Part shown: positions 6,566-21,432 of the stretch, piece after piece
Layout: every line of letters begins with the position of its first letter
Position numbering within the stretch: the stretch's first letter is position 1
Virus record (IMG/VR): IMGVR_UViG_3300032053_000031
Source of the DNA: a virus
Taxonomy: Duplodnaviria; Heunggongvirae; Uroviricota; Caudoviricetes
Direction: 5' to 3' (one strand)
DNA length: 21,780 bases
Notes under the pieces: generated by a model
What the model was told of the DNA's origin: nothing
Seen by the model: only the letters and a program-made list of their open reading frames with translations
The model's database searches: none
Position numbers and translations under genes: made by a program

Positions 6566-6776
6566 AAAGAAGAGTAATAGACAGACAGCGGAAGCTATCC
6601 AGTTACAATATCTGATGGATCAAGCTGTATTGATGAATATTGATCGCGACTGGATGGTGTTAAATTGTGAGCTGCTCCAGAAGTTTAATGAATTGGGTAA
6701 ATATTGTAAAGTTAAAACTAATTTGAAATTACCCTCGGCTTGTGTCGAAGTATTAAAAAATAAGGAGAAACATTAA
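6489..6776 (+). CDS. Putative lipoprotein, 95 aa
   Basis: MRNIK + hydrophobic stretch + lipobox LAGC; GAGG RBS before ATG6489. Confidence 0.65.
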   Translation: MRNIKGYVIVPLLILLAGCMTTKNCEKKSNRQTAEAIQLQYLMDQAVLMNIDRDWMVLNCELLQKFNELGKYCKVKTNLKLPSACVEVLKNKEKH

Positions 6777-6976
6777 TGCATTACGTAATTAGATGTGTTA
6801 AATCTTTCGGGACAGCGAGACCTGGGATGTTTGTTAATATGACTGGTGGCTATACGCGCAAGATTAATAGTGCTGACGTCTTTAGTAAGGATCGGGCGGA
6901 ACAAATGATCGAAGACTACGTGGGCGACGAAAGCGGTGATTATTTTGAATTACTGCCGGTGGAGATTAACTATTGA
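6776..6976 (+). CDS. Hypothetical protein, 66 aa
   Basis: AAGGAG RBS; TAATG overlap. Confidence 0.6.
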   Translation: MHYVIRCVKSFGTARPGMFVNMTGGYTRKINSADVFSKDRAEQMIEDYVGDESGDYFELLPVEINY

Positions 6977-7428
6977 CTCTTTACGAGAAGAACCGTAGGG
7001 AATGTATTTTCGATTTGAAAAACGTTCCTACGGAAATCTTACGATTCCAAAAGTTTAATAAAAAGCTTACGATAATAGAGAGACGCGTGTCTGCTTTCTT
7101 AATCGATTGTATGGGACGTAATTTTATTTCTAAGGTTAGAACTCAGCAAATTATAAAGTTGGGAGATGACAATTACATCATGGTAGACTTCTTAATAGAG
7201 AAACCTGACCTAATAATTGAAGTTGACGGTCCTGAACACAATACTAAAGAAGATGCCTACCGCGACAAGTTAATTAAGAAGTATTTTAATTATGATGTTA
7301 TTCGTATTAAAAATAAAGATACAATAGTTAAGAACAGTGAAATGCGCAATGATCTTCTGACAATCTTTGCTAAGGTACAAAGACTTGATCCAGGGATTCT
7401 GATACAGAACTACTGGAGTGGAAGATGA
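6973..7428 (+). CDS. DUF559 / Vsr-like PD-(D/E)xK endonuclease
   Basis: VDF...LIIEVDGPEH...D..RD...VIRIKN motif; TTG start with GGAG RBS. Confidence 0.8.
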   Translation: MTLYEKNRRECIFDLKNVPTEILRFQKFNKKLTIIERRVSAFLIDCMGRNFISKVRTQQIIKLGDDNYIMVDFLIEKPDLIIEVDGPEHNTKEDAYRDKLIKKYFNYDVIRIKNKDTIVKNSEMRNDLLTIFAKVQRLDPGILIQNYWSGR

Positions 7429-7493
7429 GTATGTGTCATAAAGACTGGTCAAGGGTGTATAAGATGAATAGGAGTGTACGAGCCAGTGATTAA
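7425..7493 (+). CDS. Possible 22-aa micro-ORF (MSMCHKDWSRVYKMNRSVRASD)
   Basis: GGAG RBS, ATGA overlap with the upstream stop; fills the gap and its stop overlaps GTG7486. Confidence 0.35.
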   Translation: MSMCHKDWSRVYKMNRSVRASD

Positions 7494-7767
7494 GATAGAC
7501 AAAGAAACTTACGTAGAACCTATTGGTCAACTGAAAAAGGTGGTGGACTTCTTAGCATCTGCTGACAAAGAGACAATAAGAATATTAAGTTCCTTCTTTG
7601 CAGGCGAAGCCAAAGGGACGACAGACGCTAAAAAGTTTCAGAAGCCTCTTAAGGTTGTCAATGTATATAAGGATACCATAGAAGTAGAAGTTAATAAGAA
7701 CTACTTATGGGAAGAGAAGACTGATCTGTTTAAACCAGCAAAGGAGAACACCGATGTCGTAGAATAA
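7474..7767 (+). CDS. Hypothetical protein, 93-97 aa
   Basis: GTG start at 7474, or more likely 7486 (AGGAG 11 nt upstream). Its last codons carry the RBS, ATG and TAG of the next gene. Confidence 0.65.
   Translation: MYEPVIKIDKETYVEPIGQLKKVVDFLASADKETIRILSSFFAGEAKGTTDAKKFQKPLKVVNVYKDTIEVEVNKNYLWEEKTDLFKPAKENTDVVE
7741..7746 (+). promoter_or_regulatory. Shine-Dalgarno (AAGGAG) for amber-containing ORF 7754
   Basis: 7 nt upstream of ATG7754. Confidence 0.7.
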
Positions 7768-7972
7768 CGATTGTTTAATTTGCTTAGTTAAGCCAGTCGG
7801 AAAATGCTGTTCCTGCCTAATAAGTGTTTGCACTGAACACTCAATTCGTCATTCCTATGAAGGATTAGAAGTTGGTTGCAGATGTGGTTGTTGTCATACA
7901 ATCATTGAAGAATTTTACTGCCTCGATTGTGCGGAGAAAAATAATATTACGGAGGAAGATAATGTAGACTAA
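7754..7972 (+). CDS. Cys-rich Zn-finger protein with in-frame TAG at codon 3 (needs amber readthrough), 72 codons; not in the ORF track
   Basis: ATG TCG TAG(7760-62) then NNDCLICLVKPVGKCCSCLISVCTEHSIRHSYEGLEVGCRCGCCHTIIEEFYCLDCAEKNNITEEDNVD TAA. No ATG/GTG/TTG in frame after the TAG; paralog of 3237-3425. Confidence 0.75.
7951..7955 (+). promoter_or_regulatory. Shine-Dalgarno (GGAGG) for amber-containing ORF 7962
   Basis: 6 nt upstream of ATG7962. Confidence 0.75.
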
Positions 7973-8423
7973 CAAACTTAATTTAGTCTGTATACTTCAT
8001 GGTCATGAACCTTGTAGTACAACTCCTCAAGGATGTCAAAAACATAAATGGCAAGGACATACATATAGGCGCCAGCAGGTTAAGCGGGATGTACTTATTC
8101 ATAGCTGGGGTCATTGGTTTCATTGTAAGTGGTGTGGCATTCCCTTACAGGCCGTTTGGAGAGGAGCTGACGGAAGAGTTCTATCTTTAGCAGAAAGAAA
8201 GTATATTCCATACGACAGAAAGGTCTGTACAAAGAAGGAACATTATCTACCCATTCCTTTTAATAAGTGTGGAGGTCGGCGAGGTGTACCCTGTGCTCTA
8301 CATGGTTTACTATATGATCACTGCGCCATGTGTAAGGAGCCTATTACAATAGAAGAGATGCCAACAGGGTGTTGTCGCAGATGGTGGAATAACTTTTGTG
8401 GTAAGTGTAGAGGTAGGAGATAA
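7962..8423 (+). CDS. Cys/His/Trp-rich multi-Zn-finger protein with in-frame TAG at codon 2 (needs amber readthrough), 153 codons; not in the ORF track
   Basis: ATG TAG(7965-67) then TNKLNLVCILHGHEPC...HWFHCKWCG...CALHG...HCAMCKEP...CCRRWWNNFCGKCRGRR TAA. The next in-frame canonical start is only at 8328. Exactly fills the gap up to the RBS of gene 8429. Confidence 0.75.
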
Positions 8424-8428
8424 GGAAC

Positions 8429-8662
8429 ATGAAGAAAACAGAAATTGATTTAGTTCCTCAGGAAAGGATTAAGGCTGTATTCTGTAATAAGTGTACCCGC
8501 GAAGTTAATTTAAATAAAGAATCTTACTTCGAGGGTATGTGTAAATGGGGATATGAAAGTAGGAGAGATGGGCAGATTCACGAATTTCATCTCTGTGAAG
8601 ACTGTTATGAGGAACTAATTAAGTCCTTCCGAATTGACGTTGATATAGAGGCCTACTTCTAA
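8429..8662 (+). CDS. Zn-finger phage hypothetical protein, 77 aa
   Basis: CNKC...WGYESRRDG..HEFHLCEDCY pattern; AAGGA RBS. Confidence 0.7.
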   Translation: MKKTEIDLVPQERIKAVFCNKCTREVNLNKESYFEGMCKWGYESRRDGQIHEFHLCEDCYEELIKSFRIDVDIEAYF

Positions 8663-8667
8663 GTTTA

Positions 8668-8738
8668 GACTCCGTAGCTTAATGGCAAAGCAACTATCTC
8701 TAAAATAGTGCATGAGAGTTCAATTCTCTCCGGAGTCA
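8668..8738 (+). tRNA. tRNA with anticodon CTA (amber suppressor, reads UAG); CCA not encoded
   Basis: Acceptor GACTCCG/CGGAGTC, T8-A9, D-stem GCTT/AAGC with loop AATGGCA, anticodon stem ACTAT/ATAGT with loop CT-CTA-AA (anticodon 8700-8702), 4-nt variable loop GCAT, T-stem GAGAG/CTCTC with loop TTCAATT, discriminator A8738. All stems are perfect Watson-Crick. Confidence 0.95.
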
Positions 8739-11309
8739 TTACTTTTTCGACGGTTCCACATAAAAGGTCTTGTCGCAGAAAGGATCAAGACACTGCCAGC
8801 GCTGCATTGTTCCAATGTTACCTTTATATCCAGCGGGGCCACCACACTTAGGACACTTAGGCTTTTCTACTTCTTTCTTTGGTTCTTCCTTCTTAAAAAG
8901 ATCTAATATTCCTGCAGTTAATCCTAAATCAGACAGACAGCGGGCGCAAAGCCATTTATCTGTTTTCTCTCCCTTAGTAATAGCTGGGTAGTGCTTACAA
9001 CGTTCGCACCTTTGGGGTTCTTGAATAAGTCCCTTCTCAACCAGATTTTCTAAGTCAGGCTTTCTTCCGCGGTACATACTCGGAAGCTCTTTTGGCTTTG
9101 CTTCCTCAGTCTCTTCCTCTATTTCTTCCTTACTGATAGGCGGCTTCGCTTTGACTGCGGGCTTCGATGGTTCTATAAGAGATTTAGCTCCCTCGTAGGT
9201 AGAAGCCTGTCGAGCTCTCTCAAGTAGATCGTGAATCAGAGTATATGCATGTCTGAGATTGACTCCACTCTGTTCCGAAACTGTTTCAGCATTGGGAGCT
9301 TCCAAACCTTTTATTTGAGTTCTAGCTTTATAAAATTCAATTAGTTTTGCTGTAGGTCCGCCTTGACCATGAGCTAAAGCGTGCCACTGTCCGGGTTGGA
9401 AGTTCTTTAGAAGACCCCAAAGCTCTTCTGCTGGATAGGTGTACTGTCTCTTTGGTTCTTCTATCTTCTCCGAAGGAGCGCGACCCCGCCTACGCTTTTC
9501 TACTAATGTAGTCGCGTCGATGTCGACATCCGACTCCATAAGATTTCCGGCCCAAGTAACTTGGAACCTAACTTTATGAATGTCCATATCTACCTGAATT
9601 ACTTCAACTACCTGATCTTTAAAGGGACCATCTAGTATCTTTATTGTATCACCCTTCTCATAAGGTGTTTTAAATCCTGGAGGTAACTCTCCCTTCTCCG
9701 TTAGATATCTATTAAGAAATCGTTCAATTACGCGCTGTCTAATATCCTGCCTGATGTTTTCTGGCCAAGGCTCTCTAGGAGGTAACTGCTCACCTGTCTC
9801 TCCACTGCGACGTTTCCCTGGAGTACCAAACCACATATAAAAATAGTATTGTTCCCTTGCAAGCTGTTTCTTCTTTGCTTCAGAAGGTTGACGTCTAACC
9901 TCTTCGCGAAAGTTTTCTAACTCAGCTTCGGTTAAAGGTTCTGGAGATGTATTATCTACCTTGGGACGAATACCTTGAAACATATCTTCGACTAACCAAC
10001 CAATGGTCGGCTCATATATACCCAAAGGTTGTCCAGGAACAGCCGCATCCTTTAAAAGAGGCTTTACTCCCCAATCAGTAAATACTGGGAAAGGATAGTT
10101 AAACTTTGCAGCAAGTATACCTACCAATTCACTAGCCCACTGTGCAAAGGGAGTATTCGTAAATTTAGCCACTTCCGAGAAAGAGGGACCAGCCCACTGC
10201 ATACCAGGATCAATATCCGCTTCCTTACGTATCTTCTTAGGAAGAGGCTGCTGCGCAAGCCACCATCGGCGTAAGCCAGTAGGGATAGGTCTATCTTCCG
10301 GCTGATAAGATGTATTGTCTATGAAAGTAATGTTGTCCCCTTCTTTTCTATAATAGAACTTTAATGTAGTATATCTAGGTACCTCATTAATAATCTCTTG
10401 GATATTTTTAGGAAGTTCCTTAAAGGGAACAACTATCTTATTATAATCGCCGGGAGTGACAGTCCACTTATCCAAAGGAATATCTACTTTTAAATAAAAC
10501 CATATCTGCTCTTCCCGGGTTTTTGGTCTAGGACCTTTCTTTTCTTTCTGTTTATAACCAGGAATACCTATCGTGGCTGCACTATCTGTAAGATATTTAG
10601 CGATAGATATATCGCCAGCATCTCCTCCCTTTGCATCAAAACTAAATTTATCAATGGTAAGCCCTTCCTCTTTAAGAGCTGCACCTGCAGCTATTGCTAC
10701 TCTTTCTGCTAATTTTGTAAGGATCTGTCCAGCAGGAGCGGGTTGAAGAGGTATATCCGCTGCTGCATATGCTTCTGTAATTTGTTTTACAAAAGCTATT
10801 GGACCTCCTAACGAAAGAACAACTGATACCTTATCCTCGTCAGGATCAATGCGATCCACTAAAGCTGTCCATGAATTTTTGAGAGAAGAGTTTTGTATAA
10901 AAATACTTCCATTAATATTACCCATCCATGGTTTCGTCGTCTCTCCTTTTCCTGGAATGGTTCTTTTTCCCGTACCCGAGACATTTACTAATGTATCCCA
11001 AGTTTTTACAAACTCGTCTGGAGTGGGAGGAAGCTCTTTAGGAAGCTCCTGCTTCTTTGCGACAGGTATTTCTTTAGGTTCTTCACCAATAGGCGTTGTA
11101 GGTATTTGTACTGGTTCCTCTTCTTTTGTTTTTTCTTCTTTTAATTCATCCAGGAAAAACTTAAGCAAAGATGAAGCGTTGTCCGCTGCCTTAATTTCCT
11201 CGAGTAATTTTTTTCTTTCAGCCTTCTGTTCCTCAATAGGTAACGTCTTAATTCTAGCTATAGCAGTATCTATCTCAACAGCATCTATCTTTTTTCCAAA
11301 ACGTTCCAT
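8739..11309 (-). CDS. 856-aa multidomain protein: NusG-CTD-like KOW domain, putative HTH, two C-terminal Zn ribbons
   Basis: YEKGDTIKILDGPFKDQVVEVIQVD (KOW, about 9495-9662); PNAETVSEQSGVNLRHAYTLI (HTH-like); CERC...CARC and CPKCGG...QRWQC...C; AGGA RBS. Confidence 0.85.
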   Translation of the reverse strand: MERFGKKIDAVEIDTAIARIKTLPIEEQKAERKKLLEEIKAADNASSLLKFFLDELKEEKTKEEEPVQIPTTPIGEEPKEIPVAKKQELPKELPPTPDEFVKTWDTLVNVSGTGKRTIPGKGETTKPWMGNINGSIFIQNSSLKNSWTALVDRIDPDEDKVSVVLSLGGPIAFVKQITEAYAAADIPLQPAPAGQILTKLAERVAIAAGAALKEEGLTIDKFSFDAKGGDAGDISIAKYLTDSAATIGIPGYKQKEKKGPRPKTREEQIWFYLKVDIPLDKWTVTPGDYNKIVVPFKELPKNIQEIINEVPRYTTLKFYYRKEGDNITFIDNTSYQPEDRPIPTGLRRWWLAQQPLPKKIRKEADIDPGMQWAGPSFSEVAKFTNTPFAQWASELVGILAAKFNYPFPVFTDWGVKPLLKDAAVPGQPLGIYEPTIGWLVEDMFQGIRPKVDNTSPEPLTEAELENFREEVRRQPSEAKKKQLAREQYYFYMWFGTPGKRRSGETGEQLPPREPWPENIRQDIRQRVIERFLNRYLTEKGELPPGFKTPYEKGDTIKILDGPFKDQVVEVIQVDMDIHKVRFQVTWAGNLMESDVDIDATTLVEKRRRGRAPSEKIEEPKRQYTYPAEELWGLLKNFQPGQWHALAHGQGGPTAKLIEFYKARTQIKGLEAPNAETVSEQSGVNLRHAYTLIHDLLERARQASTYEGAKSLIEPSKPAVKAKPPISKEEIEEETEEAKPKELPSMYRGRKPDLENLVEKGLIQEPQRCERCKHYPAITKGEKTDKWLCARCLSDLGLTAGILDLFKKEEPKKEVEKPKCPKCGGPAGYKGNIGTMQRWQCLDPFCDKTFYVEPSKK

Positions 11310-19911: not shown

Positions 19912-21432
19912 TTACGCGTACGGTACCGCTTCAATATAATTATCGGGTAGTGGGCCGACGTAAACAGCGTGTAGATCAGCGTCTTTGCCGAACTGATCAC
20001 CTGTCACATCAATTACTTTATCTTCAACTTCAACCCACCAGTGAGCAAGCATTCTTCCTTTAATATCACTTACATAACCAAAAATAGGAGTTGCGTCTAA
20101 ATGAAAATTGTTTTTAAGTACGTTAGCTAAATACTTTGATGTTTTTTCACAGAAGCCTCGGGGACTTACTTTATGATCTTCTACAAACTGTCCTCTAATC
20201 TGTTCTGCGATAGCCTTAATCTCATCCCAATCTATCTTATTAGCAGTCACTACTATAGTGGTATCATACATAGACGCAGCTGATTTATAAAATGGATTAA
20301 AAGGATTAACGACTGATTGTCCCTCTTGACCCTTCGGAAGAAAATAACTATTATGAACAAAAATTCCAGAAGCAAGAGCAAAATTGTGGTAACTTTCTAC
20401 TCCCACAATATCGTAGACGTCTGCGTAACCATCATTTTCTATTGAGATAACTTTGTGATGAATTGTCCACCCCTTAATGTCGCCACATTTATAAATCGCC
20501 GCAACTCTATGAGTTAATTTTTCCTTTCCTTCGCCAGGATTTCTAACACGTTCATACCCGTGATTGTCTAAGCGACGATATAGAGGCATTAGAGAACTAT
20601 TGATAGTTAAATTGTCTGCTCTACAGTAGGTTCCATCTCGAAGTAAAATTAAATGTTCTGGAGTACATCTAAACGATTCGGCGTTATCCAACACTATTTT
20701 CAATATAGGTACTGCTTTCTTAGTTAAAATAACTTCTTTTGCTAATCCACAACGTACTTCTTTTTTATCTTCATTCATGGAATAAACAAAAAAGTCTTTT
20801 TTCTTCTGTAGATATAATTCCTCTAAAGTAGGGTAGGTACCATCTAGTAGAGGTATTTTAGTGTCTCCGGTTAAACAACCAGGATATTCCCGTTTAAAAT
20901 TATTGTCGCCTATGTCAGATGGCCCCCACCAATCAACGTCATTCATTCGACGTTTATATTGAGGTGGCGCTACTGGACGACCCTTAGCTAGCGGAGCGTC
21001 TAATTCTTCTAAAGGAACATTCTCATATACGTTCTTAGCTTCTAAATCGCCAACGTTCACAGTTTTATCGCGATTTACAGATAGAATAACTCCCTCTACT
21101 TCACTTCGCCAAGTAGTGGGTTTAATCTTAACATGGTCGCCTTTAGTGAAAGCTTCTTTCGACATTGGCTCATAAAGTAGTCCAGGCTTATTAGAACTGA
21201 AGCCGTGCGACTTTTCTGAACCAGACCATTGCTTCCCTCTTGTGGAACTCTGGGGCCCTACTGTAAGATTCTTTTCTTTTAAAATGTTCTGTAGCACAGT
21301 GCAGAGTACTTCTGGATCTATATTAAAACCTAGACTCAAACCAGTAAGATCGGAGAAGGTATCAAAAGGAATTTCTCCTTCGATATTCTTTAATCGTTCT
21401 TCTATAAGCTGTCTAATATCTTGTTCTTTCAT
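19912..21432 (-). CDS. Intein-containing 506-aa protein: SH3-like barrel, intein, C-terminal transglutaminase/papain-like domain
   Basis: FTKGDHVKI...G.I..V (SH3/KOW-like); Hint motifs; GFCEKTS...HWWVE...IDVTGDQF (Cys-His-Asp). Confidence 0.85.
   Translation of the reverse strand: MKEQDIRQLIEERLKNIEGEIPFDTFSDLTGLSLGFNIDPEVLCTVLQNILKEKNLTVGPQSSTRGKQWSGSEKSHGFSSNKPGLLYEPMSKEAFTKGDHVKIKPTTWRSEVEGVILSVNRDKTVNVGDLEAKNVYENVPLEELDAPLAKGRPVAPPQYKRRMNDVDWWGPSDIGDNNFKREYPGCLTGDTKIPLLDGTYPTLEELYLQKKKDFFVYSMNEDKKEVRCGLAKEVILTKKAVPILKIVLDNAESFRCTPEHLILLRDGTYCRADNLTINSSLMPLYRRLDNHGYERVRNPGEGKEKLTHRVAAIYKCGDIKGWTIHHKVISIENDGYADVYDIVGVESYHNFALASGIFVHNSYFLPKGQEGQSVVNPFNPFYKSAASMYDTTIVVTANKIDWDEIKAIAEQIRGQFVEDHKVSPRGFCEKTSKYLANVLKNNFHLDATPIFGYVSDIKGRMLAHWWVEVEDKVIDVTGDQFGKDADLHAVYVGPLPDNYIEAVPYA
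20350..20877 (-). mobile_element. Mini-intein, 176 aa (C186-N361, +1 Ser), with a truncated HNH-endonuclease remnant
   Basis: Block A CLTGDTKI, block B FRCTPEHLIL, block F DVYDI, block G HNFALASGIFVHN|S; internal GYERV...THRV...GWTIHH. Confidence 0.9.

Follow-up and report, generated by a model that had tools for sequence, protein, structure and literature searches.

We describe here two small cysteine-rich genes, A and B, and a neighbouring gene for a transfer RNA (tRNA) with the anticodon CUA, found together in IMG/VR record IMGVR_UViG_3300032053_000031, which covers 21.8 kb of a large, uncultured phage of the Caudoviricetes (21,780 nucleotides, referred to as the window, by which we mean the whole stretch of DNA that was analysed). 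Gene calling under genetic code 11 leaves 660 nt with nothing but a spurious ORF of 63 amino acids (aa) between a 97-aa gene, which ends at position 7767, and a 77-aa gene starting at 8429, and reading through TAG fills this gap exactly with two open reading frames (ORFs) that begin with a Shine-Dalgarno (SD) sequence, an ATG and, as second or third codon, a TAG (Table 1). Behind the TAG, the translation of gene A runs over 69 open codons with 12 Cys, and no in-frame ATG, GTG or TTG occurs in it; that of gene B, which overlaps A by 11 nt, runs over 151 open codons and has 14 Cys and numerous His, and its earliest in-frame canonical start is codon 120 of the 151. An earlier, sequence-only reading of this DNA had reported the gap filled by two Cys-rich ORFs with these openings, the lack of alternative canonical starts and an intact CTA tRNA one gene later, and every one of these elements was recovered, the tRNA by both ARAGORN and Infernal. 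A chance control, in which SD and ATG had to be followed by a stop within 6 codons and then by at least 40 open codons, found two sites with TAG in the window, and none with TAA or TGA. In our reading, this arrangement most likely reflects a translational switch that is built into the phage, and not damage.

The same genes are present on a 117,657-bp contig of the European Nucleotide Archive (ENA); for this contig and for Logan contigs with the same genes the gene tables were used, and the genome-wide test was run on a relative from IMG/VR, G001, which is 210,348 bp long, has terminal repeats and is 100% complete (L002–L005 also belong to it). Assembly error is an unlikely source of the TAGs because a contig of the Joint Genome Institute (JGI) assembled independently (L001, sample 3300032516) is 100% identical to positions 7400–8760 of the window, both TAGs included; the corresponding region of G001 is identical in three datasets. 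No close relative was found by blastn or tblastn among 50,697 phage records, neither the IMG/VR related-locus search, run separately with A, with B and with the 856-aa neighbour, nor word-based protein searches with A or B alone gave a match, and relatives were reached only by an exhaustive HMMER search followed by profile searches. With B, HMMER found three true homologues (P0003, P0005 and P0006), to which the profile search added four (P0007–P0010). Some of these proteins had been pre-called "with TAG=Q", and the DNA was read for every homologue that could be fetched.

Table 1. Elements of the locus in the window, and start regions of A and B with the place of tRNA(CUA) in each lineage
Element	Record	Position (strand)	Description	Basis
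SD of gene A	window	7741–7746 (+)	AAGGAG; 7-nt spacer to ATG	read from sequence
Gene A	window	7754–7972 (+)	72 codons; ATG TCG TAG are codons 1–3; TAG 7760–7762; TAA 7970–7972	
SD of gene B	window	7951–7955 (+)	GGAGG; 6-nt spacer to ATG; inside the tail of gene A	read from sequence
Gene B	window	7962–8423 (+)	153 codons; ATG TAG are codons 1–2; TAG 7965–7967	
77-aa gene	window	8429–8662 (+)	contains Cys; between B and the tRNA; no TAG	ORF list
tRNA(CUA)	window	8668–8738 (+)	anticodon CUA; last element of the plus-strand gene block	ARAGORN
A, B, tRNA(CUA)	window		A ATG TCG TAG; B ATG TAG; tRNA after one 77-aa gene	
A, B, tRNA(CUA)	G001		A ATG TCA TAG; B ATG TCG TAG; tRNA overlaps the end of B	
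A, B, tRNA(CUA)	L018		A ATA TCC TAG; B ATG TTG TAG; tRNA 6 nt after B	
A, B, tRNA(CUA)	L019		A ATG TCC TAG; B ATG TTA TAG; tRNA 1 nt after B	
B, tRNA(CUA)	L020		no A gene; B ATG ACT AAT TCT TAG; tRNA after one 45-aa gene	
B, tRNA(CUA)	L024/G002		no A gene; B ATG TTA TAG AAA GAA GAG TCG TAG; tRNA 4 nt after B	
B, tRNA(CUA)	L006		contig begins inside B; tRNA directly after B	

Proteins of the B family are about 125–180 aa long and rich in Cys and His, and 12 of their 16 invariant columns are Cys or His. Six lineages have DNA for B (the window, G001, L018, L019, L020 and L024, to the last of which the 55-kb fragment G002 also belongs), and their proteins show pairwise identities of 34–64%. Across this range the TAG of B stands exactly 8 codons before the first conserved Cys, that of an (L)(P/V)C segment, in all six lineages; the leader in front of this site reads M in the window, MS in G001, ML in L018 and L019, MTNS in L020 and ML-TAG-KEES in L024. 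Three protein records begin downstream of the expected TAG site, namely P0003 and P0005, which start at an internal Met, and P0010, which starts at a Val, has no gene on record and is possibly cut. Early TAGs and a CUA tRNA co-occur in the relatives, with TAG in 6/6 B and 4/4 A homologues and a sense codon in none. Most single changes turn TAG into a sense codon. The retention of TAG over such a deep divergence, with an open and conserved ORF behind it, rules out pseudogenes and chance, and the decay of the two genes envisaged by the sequence-only reading as a refutation was not found: the downstream ORFs are intact and conserved in the relatives. This pattern of conservation indicates selection on the protein products of A and B. 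Neither of them has a match in Pfam or PHROGs, PDB profile searches gave nothing significant and the ESM Atlas nothing above noise; AlphaFold models built on shallow alignments were poor, with predicted local distance difference test (pLDDT) scores of 52 and 45.

Gene A has homologues in G001, L018 and L019, with which the protein of the window aligns at 35–39% identity and 18 invariant columns, and whose SD stands at a spacing similar to that in the window. The TAG follows a Ser codon in all four lineages carrying A, and this Ser is kept via three different codons (TCG, TCA and, in L018 and L019, TCC), which suggests that both codons ahead of the TAG are translated into protein. From its motifs and profile matches, A appears to be a specialised branch of an expanded "LCC" zinc-finger family of the phage, and its product is predicted to be an LCC-type (B-box/RING-like) zinc-finger mini-protein. 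The marks of the family are an N-terminal L-C-C-[LIMV]-[VI]-x followed by C-x2-C and C-x2-H/C pairs, plus a match to the family profile. The hidden Markov model (HMM) made from 24 G001 paralogues matches the A homologues of L018, G001 and L019 with E values from 1.5e-8 to 7e-5 (Z=1000), and the window's own A, in which a divergent CLICLVKP takes the place of LCCLVxP, with an E value of 0.12. About 40 other LCC paralogues in G001 have a plain M-x(1-5)-LCC start and no TAG. The A homologue of L018 (147–170) has a well-spaced SD, but carries ATA in the place of the ATG of the other copies; as it shares its frame with an upstream ORF, it may have a weak ATA start or be a read-through extension of the upstream protein. 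A further peculiarity concerns B in L024 (7560–7600, minus strand) and in G002, where it carries a TAG both at codon 3 and at codon 8; the one at codon 3 doubles as the in-frame stop of the upstream LCC gene, and read-through could yield an LCC-B fusion.

The third part of the module is the tRNA. Seven homologous tRNA(CUA) genes were collected (window, G001, L006, L018, L019, L020 and L024), and in all six B lineages the tRNA lies zero or one gene downstream of B. That of the window scores 67 bits in Infernal against a threshold of 29, with a full canonical cloverleaf and an end-to-end fit to the tRNA model; it is of class I, with a short variable arm, a G1-C72 pair, A73, the anticodon loop CUCUAAA and no encoded CCA. 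Compensatory changes affect 13 of the 19 stem pairs among the seven genes and the anticodon loop is invariant, from which it follows that they are under selection as working tRNAs; the context A36-A37-A38 is typical of tRNAs reading codons that start with U. The discriminator base is A73, but U73 in G001. All seven are of the elongator type and share the short variable arm; G1-C72 is paired in each, and no G-C run occurs in the anticodon stem, which in the window's tRNA reads ACUAU/AUAGU. Initiation at UAG by the tRNA itself was considered and rejected, as the marks of an initiator (a mismatch at 1:72, and an anticodon stem that ends in three G-C pairs) are missing. Decoding of the pyrrolysine type was rejected as well, since the tRNA is canonical and G001 has no PylS_Cterm match; the label "Pyl" given by ARAGORN reflects the anticodon only. 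As for the amino acid, under the identity rules of E. coli, A73, a strong 1:72 pair and U35 would favour Lys over Gln, which is a guess only. Its neighbouring position makes the tRNA the obvious candidate decoder of the TAGs in A and B. In G001, it overlaps the last 15 nt of B, and its excision would remove the stop codon of B from the messenger RNA (mRNA).

Taken together, these observations lead us to propose, with a probability of roughly 80% and on the basis of comparative sequence analysis, that the conserved three-part module is a local, tRNA(CUA)-dependent gate on one or two zinc-finger genes in large tRNA-rich phages. The module appears to be old and conserved, its core being B plus tRNA(CUA), with A in four lineages only; it is not peculiar to this phage but present in distantly related lineages, six with B and four with A. 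Ribosomes would initiate at the normal SD-ATG of A or B and meet a UAG 1–7 codons after the start (at codon 2–3 in the window), where release factor 1 (RF1) and the phage tRNA(CUA) would compete. Without charged tRNA(CUA), RF1 would release a peptide of few residues (1–2 in the window), so that a closed gate would cost very little; with it, the full A and B zinc-finger proteins would be made, and TAG would stay an ordinary stop for about one fifth of the other genes. As the tRNA is downstream of B and probably co-transcribed with it, output would require both the mRNA and a matured and charged tRNA, and the module would thereby act as a delay, or as a checkpoint for expression of the phage tRNA. 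That A, B and the tRNA are co-transcribed is assumed from their spacing; a scan of positions 6700–9000 for promoters and terminators gave nothing above shuffle expectation, and the position of the tRNA just downstream of B, with no such signal detected between them, weakly suggests that mRNA and tRNA are probably made together. The best argument for regulation comes from evolution: control by the tRNA would matter to the phage, because no lineage has swapped TAG for a sense codon, as would be expected if an ordinary residue sufficed. The gated switch advanced by the sequence-only reading is therefore supported in its structural part, that is the conserved TAGs and the adjacent tRNA, whereas its role as a timer is something we infer. 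The cascade in which translation of A is coupled to that of B agrees with the start of B inside the tail of A, but coupling is not required, since B is gated without A in L020 and L024.

The base that follows the TAG is consistent with this gate. At the early-TAG sites of five aligned lineages it is A in 8 of 9 cases and G in the remaining one, and after the genuine TAG stops of G001 (n=51) it is T in 23 cases, A in 10, C in 10 and G in 8. A 3' purine, especially A, reportedly favours suppression, and a 3' U is said to favour termination (Bossi 1983; Poole et al. 1995), so that this bias fits selection for suppression at the gates and for termination at the real stops.

A tRNA(CUA) encoded by a phage is also a hallmark of phages using code 15 (bioRxiv 10.1101/2021.08.26.457843), and as the contig measures at least 117 kb and the window only 21.8 kb, the TAGs of A and B could be the window's share of a genome-wide recoding of late genes. 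We regard this as extremely improbable, because TAG is in regular use as a stop: it terminates 7 of the 30 window genes (23%), and among the stops of G001 and G002 it makes up 15–19% (TAA 250, TGA 84 and TAG 78, or 19%, in 412 greedily called ORFs of G001; 12 of 82 ORFs in G002). The other 28 called genes of the window (~6,800 codons) contain no in-frame stop, in agreement with the absence of internal TAGs reported earlier, and on the 117-kb contig the called genes are closely packed over the 10 kb that flank the window on each side. With TAG taken as a sense codon, coding density in the window rises from 0.927 under code 11 to 0.949, all of it from the A/B gap. In G001, where density was taken from a simple greedy ORF cover, it goes from 0.914 to 0.922, exactly as in a control with TGA read as sense (0.922), and in G002 it falls from 0.953 to 0.947; there is no TAG-specific gain in either genome. 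Neighbouring ORFs in the same frame split by TAG only are no commoner in G001 than those split by TAA. This re-calling of all three sequences leaves A/B-type genes as the only gated ones (the A and B homologues in G001, B alone in G002). The pattern ATG-TCN-TAG occurs 8 times in G001 against 12 times for its reversed control, and only at the A and B homologues does it open a gene; at 46624, for example, the real start is 5 codons later. Finally, a search of G001 for the PCRF domain of class I release factors gave no match. For the relatives, genome-wide recoding is thus excluded, and in this phage it is unlikely; as the sequence-only reading had held, TAG is not generally reassigned.

If the code is not changed, the TAGs could still have a meaning other than regulation. 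It is very improbable, in our view, that ATG-(NNN)-TAG forms start-stop or leader mini-ORFs followed by non-canonical downstream starts, or that A and B are recent pseudogenes, with an unrelated tRNA nearby. There are in-frame TTG or GTG codons a few positions after the TAG in G001, L019 and L020, the A of L018 has ATA instead of ATG, and code-11 callers chose internal starts for P0003, P0005 and P0009; the canonical starts of the window are, however, absent behind the TAG of A and remote in B, the B of L018 has CTT where others carry TTG, a downstream start would cost the protein either its first Cys pair, which is conserved, or the LPC segment, and the SD is always positioned for the upstream ATG. 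Pseudogenes would not be expected to show ORFs of 60–180 open codons, 16 invariant columns and the same stop at the same site in six lineages, nor an unrelated tRNA to be adjacent in every case. Entry into A from the upstream gene, or into B from A, by a +1 frameshift was rejected too, because the codons GAA and GAC in the P site are unable to re-pair in that frame and relatives are without the overlap; that of A with the last codons of the upstream gene is not conserved, the relatives having TAA-N-ATG junctions. Improbable as well is a non-regulatory role in which UAG encodes a particular N-terminal residue, non-standard or later modified, that A and B need, the tRNA being its dedicated decoder. 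The fixed position of B's TAG would suit this idea, being reminiscent of conserved Pyl or Sec codons, as would the isotype of the tRNA, which matched no standard family. Yet the cloverleaf of the tRNA is canonical and does not resemble the Pyl or Sec type, and G001 has no match to PylS or to synthetases of class Ic (Glu/Gln), Ib (Trp/Tyr) or IIb (Lys/Asp/Asn); the distance from TAG to zinc motif varies from 2 to 6 residues in gene A, the TAG site falls in a poorly conserved N-terminal tail, and for a standard amino acid an ordinary codon would be equally good and should have replaced TAG somewhere.

Several points weigh against the tRNA-dependent gate. If the suppressor is active, the TAG stops of ~20% of the phage genes should be read through as well, a cost that the model leaves unexplained; in the window, such read-through would add 3–46 codons. 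An in-frame TTG or GTG lies 5–6 codons after the TAG in G001 and L019, where some initiation independent of the tRNA is possible, and is lacking in the B copies of the window and L018. The A that follows the gate TAG could simply mirror conserved Asn/Thr codons, and as the lineages are related, the counts given above are not counts of independent events. No single isotype emerged for the tRNA: BLAST against annotated phage tRNAs gave mixed weak matches to Thr, Val, Cys and Lys, and no clear parent was found among the 36 other tRNAs of G001. An acceptor mismatch U4.C69 and the T-loop UGC in place of the near-universal UUC are seen in three relatives (L002 2260–2331, L018 854–927 and L019 821–894), and that of G001 has two further mismatches in the anticodon stem, and is missed by ARAGORN, but still reaches 41.9 bits in Infernal; these odd features might lower the activity of the three tRNAs. 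A more specific version of the tRNA-dependent gate, which we put forward tentatively and consider possible but doubtful, is that A, B and the tRNA may form a self-contained checkpoint that reads whether the phage tRNA supply works in the given host (transcription of the array, processing, CCA addition or repair, charging) and only then releases A and B, as zinc-finger regulators, for the next step of infection. If this were true, the "orphan" suppressor tRNAs of standard-code jumbo phages would be one-codon switches, not relics or precursors of a code change.

The surroundings of the module can be described briefly. A 63-aa ORF at 7999–8190 (plus strand), called by code-11 callers on several public contigs, is embedded in B in a different reading frame and almost certainly spurious. 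The 77-aa gene has only weak zinc-ribbon-like matches, below the Pfam cut-offs, and is probably in the same transcription unit as its neighbours; its counterpart in L020 is the 45-aa gene at the same position, and the other relatives have none. Elsewhere the window encodes an RlaP-type nucleotidyltransferase, a RuvB-like ATPase, a giant NADAR-containing protein of 2157 aa and many small Cys-rich genes, and a 506-aa protein (19912–21432, minus strand) has an Intein_splicing Pfam match in the precomputed table for the 117-kb contig. Besides the CUA gene, G001 has 36 tRNA genes, which lie mostly in one 13-kb array (103–116 kb; L003, L012) among small Cys-rich genes; ARAGORN found no tRNA-Lys, tRNA-Phe or tRNA-Pro in this genome. 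Inside the array there is a match to a raiA-like structured RNA (L002 342–662, which is ~108.9–109.3 kb in G001; E value 9e-13), whose 61 bits are below the Rfam gathering score of 101. An unrelated phage, L021 (IMGVR_UViG_3300027902_000006), has a similar tRNA(CUA), and 1.6 kb upstream of it ORFs with a GGQ motif (RF-1-domain/ArfB-like) and of PTH2-like type.

The findings support the view that translational control by a phage suppressor tRNA can shrink to a single conserved codon that locks one or two neighbouring genes while the genome keeps the standard code. Suppressor tRNAs in standard-code phages, hitherto seen as oddities or as first steps of recoding, would thereby gain a concrete and testable function. 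The module would also indicate that a stop codon can stably carry two meanings in one genome, and provide a natural counterpart of engineered amber switches; the module is small, consisting of SD-ATG-TAG plus one tRNA. For annotation, the practical consequence is that code-11 gene callers miss or truncate such genes, and pipelines should check early TAGs beside CUA tRNAs.

In published work, TAG or TGA is broadly recoded in late genes and suppressor tRNAs are proposed to be temporal regulators (Borges et al., bioRxiv 10.1101/2021.08.26.457843), those of standard-code relatives being viewed as possible intermediates toward recoding (bioRxiv 10.1101/2021.08.26.457843), and a 2026 survey of jumbo phages treats CUA tRNAs in the context of code 15 only. 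A stable, gene-specific gate made of an early UAG and a tRNA next to it is not described in the literature that we searched. The closest system is that of the code-15 phages (crAss-like, Lak and others; Borges et al.; Peters et al. 2022, PMC9523058), in which TAG is read as Gln with the help of suppressor tRNAs. Like them, the phages described here carry a tRNA(CUA) in presumably a standard-code host, and in both an in-frame TAG is proposed to delay translation until the suppressor is available. In the code-15 phages, however, TAGs number tens to hundreds and are found across structural and lysis genes, there is a depletion of TAG among the stops, code 15 raises the coding density and RF2 (release factor 2) is often present, whereas in our module the TAG is confined to one or two genes per genome and to the first 2–8 codons, the client genes adjoin the tRNA and TAG accounts for ~20% of stops.

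Two other systems invite comparison. In Streptomyces, a few regulatory genes with TTA depend on the level of one dedicated tRNA, bldA tRNA-Leu(UAA). The likeness lies in the single dedicated tRNA and in a codon that is in frame in very few genes; the differences are that TTA is a rare sense codon, serves cellular development and is not confined to the first codons, and that the targets of bldA are no neighbours of the tRNA gene. Engineered amber switches place a UAG just after the start and are opened by an orthogonal suppressor pair, with near-zero leak and minimal cost. They share with the A/B module the early UAG and an output that would depend on a charged suppressor tRNA, but they are synthetic and require an added synthetase and an unnatural amino acid, whereas the module of these phages is natural, conserved and presumably charged by a synthetase of the host.

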